DNA of 64,000 bases, taken from Escherichia coli. GTDB taxonomy: Bacteria; Pseudomonadota; Gammaproteobacteria; Enterobacterales; Enterobacteriaceae. Of this stretch, positions 30,884 through 54,027 are shown in pieces (within the stretch, counting starts at the first letter, position 1; every line of letters begins with the position of its first letter). The stretch lies in NCBI RefSeq assembly GCF_045037415.1, contig NZ_CP173438.1, one strand, 5' to 3'. The notes beneath the pieces were generated by a model that worked only from the letters and a program-made list of their open reading frames with translations, had not been told where the DNA came from and did not search any database. Made by a program: the position numbers and the translations under genes.

Positions 30884-31372
30884 TTAGCGAACAACCGCGT
30901 TGTCAATTTTCTCTTCCGCCTTCCAGACACGGTACTTCACATCCACATTGTCTGGCGTATACACCACGATCGGCAGCTTGCTGTTGTAACGCAGCATTCC
31001 AGCATCGCCCAGATACGCGGTGACAAATTTCTTCTCTTTCTTGCCATCCGGGCAGGCCATCATCGTGGAAACCGGCGAGCTAACTTTATCAAAGACATAA
31101 TAATCATAGCCCCAGCCTTCCAGCGTTTTGCTTTCCAGCTTCCCGCCGAGACGATGCAAATTGCAGTCGACTTCCAGCGTCTGACCGATTAACAGTTCTA
31201 CTTTCAGGGTAGATTCATCTTCTTGCGGAGTTAACTGAATCACCTGACGCTTCATGCCTTTTTCAGCTTGTGGATAAGGCGCGATTTTTTCCAGTGGCTG
31301 GACGCTCTCTGCCGCCCAGGCGGAAGTGGTGGCGAAAGCGGCAAACAATACTGCAGGTAGAATGGTCTTCAT
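30884..31372 (-). CDS. eco: ecotin (periplasmic serine protease inhibitor)
   Basis: ORF track 30884..31393; native start [20 protein letters not shown] at 31372 (162 aa). Confidence 0.95.
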
Positions 31373-31554
31373 TTTTTTGCTTTCCTTCTTCATTTATAGG
31401 TTTTCACCGATGATGTCGCTGAAGGTTAACATATTCATCAGATTTATTAATTTGCTTTATGAATAACTTAAAGAACATTCAGATAATTTTACCTGCTCTT
31501 TTAGTGTTAAATTCTGATGAGAAAACAAACCAGCAGAAATATCTCTGGCGAATT

Positions 31555-31582
31555 AATCGCTATATAAATATGTTTATAACCA
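31555..31582 (+). promoter_or_regulatory. Candidate ModE binding site upstream of napF
   Basis: ATCGCTATATAAATATGTTTATAACC (TATAT-N-TAYAT type), centred about 134 nt upstream of the inferred napF transcription start. Confidence 0.45.
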
Positions 31583-31631
31583 TTTGAAATGTGAGCAAAA
31601 GCCCGTTTTTGCCACGCTTCCCGCCACTCTT

Positions 31632-31666
31632 TTGATCCTGCTACAGGTTTTACCCCGATCGGGGTA
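31632..31666 (+). promoter_or_regulatory. napF promoter: FNR half-site plus NarP/NarL 7-2-7 site
   Basis: TTGAT-cctg-CTACA (FNR-like, left half exact) centred 20 bp upstream of the perfect palindrome TACCCCG-AT-CGGGGTA; spacing matches the -64.5/-44.5 arrangement described for napF. Confidence 0.55.
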
Positions 31667-31779
31667 TGCATCTTTGACACATCCTTTAATATCTTAGCGG
31701 CTATAAAAATGGCTTATTAATTATGCGGTTTATTTGGTCGCTCTCAATTTTCAGAGCGCGTTAATGATGGAAGGTCAAT

Positions 31780-32274
31780 GTGAAGATTGATGCATCCCGT
31801 CGGGGCATACTCACTGGTCGCTGGCGCAAAGCCAGTAACGGTATCCGTCCGCCCTGGTCCGGTGATGAATCTCATTTTCTGACCCATTGCACCCGCTGCG
31901 ACGCCTGTATTAATGCTTGTGAAAACAACATTCTGCAACGCGGCGCGGGTAGCTATCCGAGCGTTAATTTCAAAAATAACGAGTGCAGCTTCTGTTACGC
32001 CTGCGCGCAGGCTTGCCCCGAATCGCTATTTTCTCCGCGCCACACCAGGGCCTGGGATTTGCAGTTCACCATTGGGGACGCGTGCCTGGCGTATCAGTCA
32101 GTTGAATGCCGCCGCTGTCAGGATAGCTGTGAGCCAATGGCAATTATCTTTCGCCCGACGCTCTCCGGGATCTACCAGCCGCAACTTAATAGCCAACTTT
32201 GCAACGGATGTGGAGCATGTGCAGCCAGCTGTCCGGTATCAGCCATAACTGCGGAGTATCTCCATGCACACTAA
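31780..32274 (+). CDS. napF: ferredoxin-type protein NapF
   Basis: 164-aa ORF with several CxxCxxCxxxCP 4Fe-4S motifs; first gene of the nap operon. Confidence 0.9.
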   Translation: MKIDASRRGILTGRWRKASNGIRPPWSGDESHFLTHCTRCDACINACENNILQRGAGSYPSVNFKNNECSFCYACAQACPESLFSPRHTRAWDLQFTIGDACLAYQSVECRRCQDSCEPMAIIFRPTLSGIYQPQLNSQLCNGCGACAASCPVSAITAEYLHAH

Positions 32275-32527
32275 CTGGCAAGTTTGCAGCCTGGTCGTGC
32301 AGGCCAAAAGCGAACGAATTTCAGACATCAGCACCCAACTGAACGCCTTTACCGGCTGTGAAGTTGCTGTCAGCGACGCGCCGAGCGGTCAGTTGATTGT
32401 GGTGGTGGAAGCAGAAGACAGCGAAACGCTGATCCAAACCATTGAGTCAGTACGCAACGTAGAGGGCGTGCTGGCGGTGTCGCTGGTTTATCACCAGCAG
32501 GAAGAGCAAGGTGAGGAAACACCATGA
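32264..32527 (+). CDS. napD: NapA chaperone NapD
   Basis: 87-aa ORF overlapping napF by 11 nt; its stop overlaps the native napA ATG (ATGA at 32524-32527). Confidence 0.9.
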   Translation: MHTNWQVCSLVVQAKSERISDISTQLNAFTGCEVAVSDAPSGQLIVVVEAEDSETLIQTIESVRNVEGVLAVSLVYHQQEEQGEETP

Positions 32528-32563
32528 AACTCAGTCGTCGTAGCTTTATGAAAGCTAACGCCG

Positions 32564-35011
32564 TTGCGGCCGCTGCGGCGGCTGCCGGTTCTCAGCGTGC
32601 CGGGCGTTGCCCGCGCCGTTGTTGGTCAGCAGGAAGCCATTAAATGGGATAAAGCGCCGTGCCGTTTCTGCGGTACGGGTTGCGGCGTTCTGGTCGGAAC
32701 GCAGCAGGGGCGTGTGGTGGCTTGTCAGGGCGACCCGGACGCACCGGTTAACCGTGGCCTGAACTGCATTAAGGGCTATTTCCTGCCCAAAATCATGTAC
32801 GGTAAAGACCGTTTGACGCAGCCGCTGCTGCGTATGAAAAACGGTAAATATGATAAAGAAGGCGAATTTACCCCAATCACCTGGGATCAGGCCTTCGATG
32901 TGATGGAAGAGAAATTCAAAACCGCCCTGAAAGAAAAAGGGCCGGAATCGATCGGTATGTTCGGTTCTGGTCAGTGGACTATCTGGGAAGGTTATGCCGC
33001 GTCCAAGCTGTTTAAAGCGGGCTTCCGTTCGAACAACATCGACCCGAACGCGCGTCACTGTATGGCGTCGGCAGTAGTTGGCTTTATGCGTACCTTTGGT
33101 ATGGATGAGCCGATGGGCTGCTATGACGACATCGAGCAGGCTGACGCGTTTGTGCTGTGGGGCGCAAACATGGCGGAGATGCACCCGATCCTCTGGTCGC
33201 GCATCACTAACCGTCGTCTCTCTAACCAGAACGTTACCGTGGCGGTGCTTTCTACCTACCAGCATCGTAGCTTCGAGCTGGCGGATAACGGCATCATCTT
33301 TACGCCGCAATCTGACCTGGTGATCCTGAACTATATCGCCAACTATATCATTCAAAACAATGCGATAAATCAGGACTTCTTCAGCAAACACGTTAACCTG
33401 CGCAAAGGGGCGACGGACATCGGCTACGGTTTACGTCCGACCCATCCGCTGGAAAAAGCAGCGAAGAATCCGGGTTCTGACGCCTCCGAACCGATGAGCT
33501 TTGAAGATTACAAAGCCTTCGTTGCTGAATATACGCTGGAAAAAACCGCCGAAATGACCGGCGTGCCGAAAGACCAGTTAGAACAACTGGCGCAGCTGTA
33601 TGCCGATCCGAACAAGAAAGTCATCTCCTACTGGACGATGGGCTTCAACCAGCATACCCGTGGTGTGTGGGCCAACAACCTGGTCTACAACCTGCACCTG
33701 CTGACCGGCAAAATTTCCCAGCCGGGTTGCGGTCCGTTCTCCCTGACCGGGCAGCCTTCCGCGTGTGGTACTGCGCGTGAAGTGGGCACCTTTGCTCACC
33801 GTCTGCCTGCGGACATGGTGGTGACTAACGAGAAACATCGTGATATTTGCGAGAAGAAGTGGAATATCCCGAGTGGCACCATTCCGGCGAAAATCGGTCT
33901 GCACGCGGTGGCACAAGACCGTGCGCTGAAAGACGGCAAACTGAATGTTTACTGGACCATGTGTACCAATAACATGCAGGCCGGACCGAACATTAATGAA
34001 GAGCGTATGCCGGGCTGGCGCGATCCGCGCAACTTTATCATCGTTTCCGATCCATATCCGACGGTCAGTGCGCTGGCAGCGGACTTGATCCTGCCGACCG
34101 CAATGTGGGTAGAGAAAGAGGGGGCTTACGGTAATGCCGAACGCCGTACTCAGTTCTGGCGTCAGCAGGTACAGGCACCGGGTGAAGCAAAATCGGATCT
34201 CTGGCAGTTAGTTCAGTTCTCCCGTCGCTTCAAAACTGAAGAAGTGTGGCCGGAAGAGCTGCTGGCTAAGAAACCGGAACTGCGTGGCAAAACGCTGTAT
34301 GAGGTTCTGTATGCCACTCCGGAAGTGAGCAAATTCCCGGTATCCGAACTGGCGGAAGATCAGCTGAACGACGAATCTCGCGAGCTGGGCTTCTATCTGC
34401 AAAAAGGGTTGTTCGAAGAGTACGCATGGTTTGGTCGCGGTCACGGTCACGATCTCGCGCCGTTCGATGATTACCACAAAGCACGCGGTCTGCGCTGGCC
34501 GGTGGTGAACGGTAAAGAAACGCAGTGGCGTTACAGCGAAGGTAACGACCCGTACGTGAAAGCGGGCGAAGGCTACAAGTTCTACGGTAAACCGGATGGC
34601 AAAGCGGTGATCTTCGCGCTGCCGTTCGAACCTGCGGCGGAAGCGCCGGATGAAGAGTACGACCTGTGGCTCTCTACCGGACGCGTCCTGGAGCACTGGC
34701 ATACCGGCAGTATGACTCGCCGTGTACCGGAACTGCACCGCGCCTTCCCGGAAGCGGTTCTGTTTATTCACCCGCTGGATGCGAAAGCGCGCGATCTGCG
34801 CCGTGGCGACAAAGTGAAAGTGGTTTCTCGCCGTGGCGAAGTGATCTCGATTGTCGAAACGCGCGGTCGTAACCGTCCGCCGCAGGGCCTGGTGTACATG
34901 CCGTTCTTCGACGCCGCACAGCTGGTTAACAAACTGACGCTGGATGCGACCGATCCGCTCTCGAAAGAGACGGACTTCAAGAAGTGCGCGGTCAAACTGG
35001 AGAAGGTGTAA
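32564..35011 (+). CDS. napA: periplasmic nitrate reductase catalytic subunit NapA; Tat signal region frameshifted as given
   Basis: 815-aa ORF from TTG 32564 carries the 4Fe-4S motif CRFCGTGC and the molybdopterin domain; the native ATG at 32524 encodes the twin-arginine signal [22 protein letters not shown] in a different frame that stops at about 32641. Confidence 0.85.
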
Positions 35012-53694: not shown

Positions 53695-54027
53695 TCTATT
53701 GCACAACGAGGAAGCTAAAAGGCTTCCTTTGTTGATGCATGTCAACCACAAATCTATCATTCCCCCGATATATGTTTATTTTATGTAAAATCAATTTATG
53801 TAAAAAGTCACATCATTGTAGTTAAAAAGGTTGAGTTAGATCGCAGAAACGGGTACATATAGCCCCGCAAACGTGACCACGCCCGCAGATATTATTTAAA
53901 TCAGAGCCATATAGGCCACGCAGGCGAGGCATCAATCTTTACGATCTGTATAAAGACGGATTGTTGATGATGTGTTAAAATTGATGTAAATAAATTGTGA
54001 AGTAAAATGTACTTCCGGGGAAAATAA

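Follow-up and report, generated by a model that had tools for sequence, protein, structure and literature searches.

The napF control region of Escherichia coli K-12 (aeg-46.5), worked out by the Stewart and Gunsalus laboratories, reportedly comprises the promoters P1 and P2, an FNR site at −64.5, a NarP/NarL 7-2-7 site at −44.5, a ModE site at −133.5, and an upstream Crp site. In the nirB and nrfA promoters of E. coli, FNR binds at −41.5, and the NarL/NarP 7-2-7 site lies upstream, at −69.5 or −74.5. These promoters share with napF the regulators, the 7-2-7 heptamer grammar, and the combined control by anaerobiosis and nitrate/nitrite. In napF, however, the order is inverted, with the response-regulator site proximal (−44.5) and the FNR site distal (−64.5), and NarL antagonizes expression instead of activating it. 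The ModE site of modA overlaps the promoter and represses, whereas that of napF is located far upstream (−133.5) and acts positively.

In the literature on nap, ModE is described as an activator and IscR as a repressor (Durand and Guillier, PMC8139620). The heptamers of the napF 7-2-7 site are centered at −40 and −49, and TACCCCTAAAGGGGTA represents an engineered high-affinity, or optimal, NarL site (Katsir et al., PMC4549865). A napF fusion covering −85 to +19 is NarP-dependent (Brosse et al., PMC9262595). For FNR, a ChIP peak was reported at napF/yojO (2301669–2301675 in U00096.2), with NarL, NarP, IscR, and ModE as co-regulators (Myers et al., PMC3688515). According to the same study, the napF FNR site is weak and depends on NarP as a co-activator, yet is bound in vivo in K-12 (PMC3688515).

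Identity and gene context of the locus

The window, i.e. the complete stretch of 64,000 nucleotides analyzed here, shows the gene order yojI-mqo-eco / napFDAGHBC-ccmA-H-narP, which is the same as in K-12 according to the ORF map and the K-12/RefSeq annotation. The control region adjoins napFDAGHBC on its upstream side and is divergent from eco. Three genes of this segment are referred to below.

31780..32274, plus strand: napF coding sequence, 164 amino acids, GTG start
32264..32527, plus strand: napD coding sequence, 87 amino acids
43955–44602, minus strand: narP, intact

From position 31573 through the start of napF (to 31800), the alignment with K-12 MG1655 shows 100% identity (99% across 431 bp), and we therefore regard this segment as the same DNA as the experimentally defined napF control region. 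Inside the aligned stretch, all substitutions relative to K-12 are found at or upstream of 31572. Two of them fall within or beside the ModE site: in its spacer, position 31572 is G, as in E. albertii, instead of the A of K-12, and immediately outside the dyad, position 31555 is T instead of the C of K-12. The K-12 region thus differs in these upstream substitutions and in napA, which is frameshifted in the window strain, whereas the sequence from 31573 on, the gene context, and the three sites with their spacings are all shared.

Among 5426 complete E. coli genomes, 5421 contain a match to the napF–eco intergenic region, and in many B2 strains this match is 100% identical. Of 5421 complete E. 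coli genomes, 4948 carry an exact copy of an 81-bp core (31625–31705). When a 24-kb query was used, many strains were identical or one gap away, including SK1144, 81009, and ZH063, which, along with others, we take to be ST131 strains. The window is E. coli DNA of an ST131-like strain.

Judged from its sequence, the segment 31556–31779 is the control region of the napFDAGHBC operon (periplasmic nitrate reductase) and would work as in K-12, a reading to which we assign a probability of about 0.93. The initial annotation had recognized a layout as described for napF and proposed a comparison with the napF promoter of a reference strain. This comparison, with its 100% identity to K-12 MG1655 from 31573, bears the assignment out: the core is letter-for-letter that of K-12, and the geometry agrees with the literature. 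What is found here is a textbook napF control region that has been fully described before and holds nothing new. Its practical meaning is small and lies mostly in annotation: the strain appears to have retained the usual control of the nap operon by anaerobiosis, nitrate, and molybdate.

Regulatory sites

Four elements precede the promoter. Direct results of this analysis are their sequences and spacing, the identity to K-12, the conservation between species, and the finding that the ModE and NarP sites stand out statistically.

31556..31583, no strand assigned: ModE operator dyad ATCGCTATATA-N6-TTTATAACCAT, center 31569.5
31587..31608, no strand assigned: CRP-type element AAATGTGA, TGTGA at 31590–31594, degenerate right half, putative center about −105.5
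31632..31645, no strand assigned: FNR site TTGAT-cctg-CTACA (TTGATcctgCTACA; TTGATCCTGCTACA), center 31638.5
31651..31666, no strand assigned: NarP/NarL 7-2-7 site TACCCCG-AT-CGGGGTA (TACCCCGATCGGGGTA), perfect 16-bp palindrome, center 31658.5

The ModE site lies far above chance. With up to three mismatches to the ModE consensus, the napF site is the sole match in 64 kb, at 0.10 expected. A matrix trained on the modA, moaA, and dmsA operators of K-12, from which napF was excluded, likewise ranks 31556–31583 first in 64 kb with 21.2 bits, followed by a next-best score of 8.8 bits over a background with a mean of −30 and a standard deviation of 9. The dyad pattern itself is general background knowledge; applied to K-12, it gives a single match ahead of modA, of moaA, and of dmsA. 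All four operators follow the same CGnTATATA-N6-TAYATAnCG with a 6-bp spacer, so that one pattern recovers them all, whereas the right arm of napF (TTTATAACC) is more degenerate than that of the other three. A ModE-like site had initially been placed at 31557..31580. Its presence is confirmed by the proposed matrix scan, in which it comes first in the window (21.2 versus 8.8 bits), but its limits were drawn slightly short, because the full dyad spans 31556–31583. The inner string CGCTATATA-aatatg-TTTATAACC occupies 31558–31581. The center of the dyad is located 89 bp upstream of the center of the palindrome.

The 7-2-7 palindrome is also well above chance, which depends on how its features are combined. 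Each heptamer fits the consensus TACYYMT-N2-AKRRGTA in six of seven positions. The number of consensus matches with up to two mismatches (three in the window versus 2.3 expected) is not decisive alone, and neither is the number of perfect palindromes of at least 16 bp (four in the window versus 1.25 expected). By chance, however, the window should contain no more than about 0.002 perfect palindromes whose arms fit TACYYM (1.25 × 1/512). The exact reading of the palindrome at 31651..31666 and its distance to the FNR-like site hold as given in the initial annotation: exactly 20 bp separate the center of the FNR-like site, upstream at 31638.5, from that of the palindrome at 31658.5. We also considered the palindrome as an RNA element or terminator and rejected this, because it has no loop and no T-run and no Rfam family was found in 31000–32300 at E ≤ 1.

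The initial list of sites lacked the CRP-type TGTGA element. Both TTGAAATGTGAGCAAAAGC, located between the ModE and FNR sites, and AAATGTGAGCAAAAGC (31587–31608) are invariant in Escherichia and Citrobacter. The full CRP consensus gave no match within two mismatches at 31590, where only a half-site is conserved. Stewart and colleagues are said to have reported, in 2009, a Crp site upstream of the napF FNR site, and the element at 31587–31608 probably corresponds to it. For IscR, no site could be placed with confidence using the type-2 motif.

Conservation between species

To compare species, we scanned one genome from each for NapF. Seven of the loci could be used (E. albertii, E. coli, four Citrobacter, and Leclercia); 13 further hits were distant ferredoxin-like proteins and were left out. 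We aligned the upstream regions of six loci with the window and K-12, giving eight sequences. From the FNR site to the −10 region, all eight sequences, Leclercia included, align with zero indels, and within Escherichia and Citrobacter the same holds from the ModE dyad to the −10 region. In the upstream flank (31480–31555), merely 6 of 76 columns are invariant.

Of the 16 columns of the NarP site, 13 do not vary across genera. E. albertii carries TACCTCG, and two Citrobacter show a symmetric G-to-A/C-to-T pair. In these two Citrobacter, the inner heptamer positions homologous to 31657 and 31660 are both changed, and the resulting 7-2-7 site (TACCCCAATTGGGGTA) is still a perfect palindrome. The 7-2-7 site of C. 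youngae ATCC 29220 represents a one-sided intermediate of this symmetric change.

The left half of the FNR site, TTGAT, is invariant in all five columns in the seven species-level sequences, and the right half drifts (CTACA, CAACA, CTACT). The ModE dyad is kept in E. albertii and in Citrobacter, where it is nearer to the consensus (CGTTATATA-N6-TATATAAC), and is absent from Leclercia. Leclercia also lacks the TGTGA element and retains the FNR/NarP/−10 core. In the metagenome-assembled genome of Leclercia adecarboxylata that provided this sequence (locus L009, about 1190–1290), the 3′ end of an apparent tRNA gene abuts the napF upstream region.

The FNR site

The FNR site consists of a perfect left half and a right half that matches in two of five positions, so that 7 of 10 consensus positions are matched in total. 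At this level of up to three mismatches, the window contains 348 matches to the FNR consensus. On a matrix that we built from 12 ChIP-bound K-12 sites, the site scores 2.5 bits, which is reached by 224 of 63,979 positions (ln p = −5.65, p about 0.004). A PatSer ln p of −5.37 was given for the same FNR peak (Myers et al., PMC3688515). The two independent matrices thus agree that the site at 31632–31645 is not separable from background by its sequence score, and it does not belong to the canonical TTGAT-N4-ATCAA class that scores clearly above genomic background.

The initial annotation had read string and position of the FNR-like site correctly, and had named a matrix score below background as grounds for dismissing it. 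Taken literally, the background-level score that we obtained would reject the site. This test is invalid here, because the site is known to be weak and co-activator-dependent and is bound in vivo. Presumably, the coordinate offset between genome versions is +1976 at this locus. With this value, the homologue of 31638.5 lies at about 2301662.5 in K-12, which is 6–12 bp from the center of the ChIP peak. The FNR site is instead supported by the K-12 ChIP peak, by the invariant TTGAT half-site, and by the indel-free 20-bp spacing. In K-12, it is functional but outside the consensus class. The site may serve as a calibration case, in that a functional, ChIP-verified FNR site may sit at matrix background, where spacing, conservation, and partner sites inform instead.

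FNR might instead act through a downstream 14-mer, TTGGTCGCTCTCAA (31734–31747, center about +38.5), and not through 31632–31645. This 14-mer scores 10.8 bits on the FNR matrix versus 2.5 bits for the upstream site, ranks 11th in the whole window, and has two consensus mismatches versus three. However, conservation of its right half already fails in E. albertii, and Citrobacter and Leclercia have lost the entire site. The center of the K-12 ChIP peak lies about 110 bp from the 14-mer versus 6–12 bp from the upstream FNR site, and a site at +38.5 could allow repression, but not activation. The −85 to +19 fusion, which does not include the 14-mer, is still regulated (PMC9262595). This fusion corresponds to 31618–31721 of the window and includes both proximal sites (FNR and 7-2-7). 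An action of FNR through the downstream 14-mer is accordingly very improbable, and we retain the upstream site at 31632–31645.

Promoter geometry and proposed regulation

The transcription start was placed by setting the heptamer centers (31654 and 31663) at the published positions −49 and −40, which would make A31703 the +1 of P1. Stewart and colleagues (2003) reportedly found two napF starts 3 nt apart.

31700..31703, plus strand: putative starts of transcription at A31703 (P1) and G31700 (P2), from the published −40/−49 positions and the reported 3-nt gap
31687..31696, plus strand: overlapping −10 elements TAATAT (31687–31692, presumably P2) and TATCTT (31690–31695, presumably P1)
31703..31779, plus strand: predicted napF leader, 77 nt, Shine-Dalgarno sequence GGAAGG at 31769–31774

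With +1 at 31703, the 7-2-7 site would be centered at −44.5, the FNR site at −64.5, and the ModE dyad at −133.5. The values of −64.5 and −133.5 are said to be those described by Stewart and colleagues in 2003 and by McNicholas and Gunsalus in 2002, and equal the ones derived from the window. The sequence AATATCTTA, which contains the overlapping −10 hexamers, is invariant in all eight aligned sequences, and so is ATGGAAGG of the napF leader in the cross-species alignment. A generic σ70 scan found no −35/−10 pair at P1 or P2; we did not count this against the promoter, because it is expected for an activator-dependent one.

Two further observations concern the napF leader. On the minus strand, a σ70-like match (31720–31747, TTGAGA-16-CATAAT, 10 of 12 positions) points toward yojO/eco. 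On the plus strand, 31725–31750 contains a weak hairpin followed by a T-run.

For the window strain, protein binding, transcription start, and regulatory outcome are taken over from the K-12 literature, by analogy with which regulation would proceed as follows. Under anaerobiosis, FNR would occupy its weak site at −64.5, and in the presence of nitrate or nitrite phospho-NarP would bind the palindromic 7-2-7 site at −44.5, two helical turns downstream of the FNR site. Both proteins would jointly activate the poor-consensus promoter P1, with a start at about 31703. At high nitrate, phospho-NarL would compete for the 7-2-7 site and dampen expression. Molybdate-bound ModE on the −133.5 dyad would raise expression when molybdate is available, and the CRP-type element at about −105.5 would probably add catabolite control.

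Overlap with yojO

A small annotated ORF lies across the regulatory sites, and both the conservation and the palindrome could in principle reflect coding constraint on it.

31507–31671, minus strand: yojO, 54 amino acids (b4604 in K-12), overlapping the ModE, CRP-like, FNR, and NarP sites

In the window as well as in K-12, this reading frame is open, and the annotation of K-12 and of many RefSeq genomes lists it, as “protein YojO” or “hypothetical protein.” In E. albertii, in four of four Citrobacter, and in Leclercia, however, the homologous frame contains stops, while the regulatory elements are still conserved. The substitutions in the yojO frame show a modest third-position excess, for example 24–25 in Citrobacter versus 13–18 at positions 1 and 2. 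With the frame broken in every non-E. coli sequence, we rejected coding constraint as the cause of the conservation and give it hardly any probability. Because of these stops, yojO is probably not a real gene, which means for annotation that the ORF recorded over these sites has a reading frame that is not conserved.

The napA frameshift

The second gene downstream of napF is disrupted in the window strain.

32524..35011, plus strand: napA, with a single-T insertion at 32589/32590 (codon 22/23) that disrupts the gene within the Tat signal peptide

Compared with K-12, napA reads GGTTCTC instead of GGTCTC, so that the reading frame changes at codon 23. Read from the ATG at 32524, the gene runs into a TAA stop at 32641–32643, giving a 39-codon product, and the rest of napA is open in the +1 frame (ORF 32564–35011). 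In an identical genome, PGAP annotates the identical napA as “frameshifted.” The frameshift had been noted in the initial annotation, and the extra T relative to K-12 together with the PGAP entry establishes it.

Among 5420 complete E. coli genomes, 17 have the additional T. Those of the Esc series and ECKH-100, 16 in total, hardly differ from the window. The 17th, strain 98212 (urine, Egypt), has 59 differences in 3 kb (2%) and the same insertion. The insertion is a rare mutation, and we regard it as very recent in the window, given that the 24 kb around it shows no other difference from ST131 genomes in which napA is intact. Next to so recent a frameshift, an intact promoter is to be expected. 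The earlier statement that regulation looks intact despite the frameshift thus appears true but is uninformative given this recency.

That the sites are decaying relics of a possibly non-functional promoter, from which the napA pseudogene removes selection, would be in line with the frameshift in the window strain, but is scarcely credible, because no decay is seen: the 24 kb around the operon equals ST131 genomes with intact napA bar the single T, and the promoter core is identical to K-12. In addition, napGHBC is expressed from the napF promoter, and so is part of ccm.

The insertion in strain 98212 could represent a recurrence, a recombination patch, or an assembly artefact. If the latter two do not apply, this would suggest that Nap has been inactivated repeatedly in human isolates, by a mutational hotspot or by selected loss, which we consider unlikely. 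In both backgrounds that carry the insertion (the ST131-like clone and 98212), the FNR/NarP/ModE control region is fully intact. Should recurrent loss be true, the promoter might be retained because it also drives napGHBC-ccm.

Other observations in the window

The strongest hits to the FNR matrix in the window (17.8, 14.3, and 14.3 bits) are clustered in the bcr–yejG intergenic region (53732–53994), upstream of yejG. A supplementary list of genes with expression values by Myers et al. contains yejG with a value of 4.0 and gives no ChIP peak for it (PMC3688515).

Apart from the 7-2-7 site, perfect palindromes of 16–18 bp are found at three positions. CGATATTCATGAATATCG (41936–41953) is located within ccmF, GTGGATGATCATCCAC (44554–44569) in the 5′ part of narP, and CAGTTTTTAAAAACTG (44829–44844) upstream of narP.
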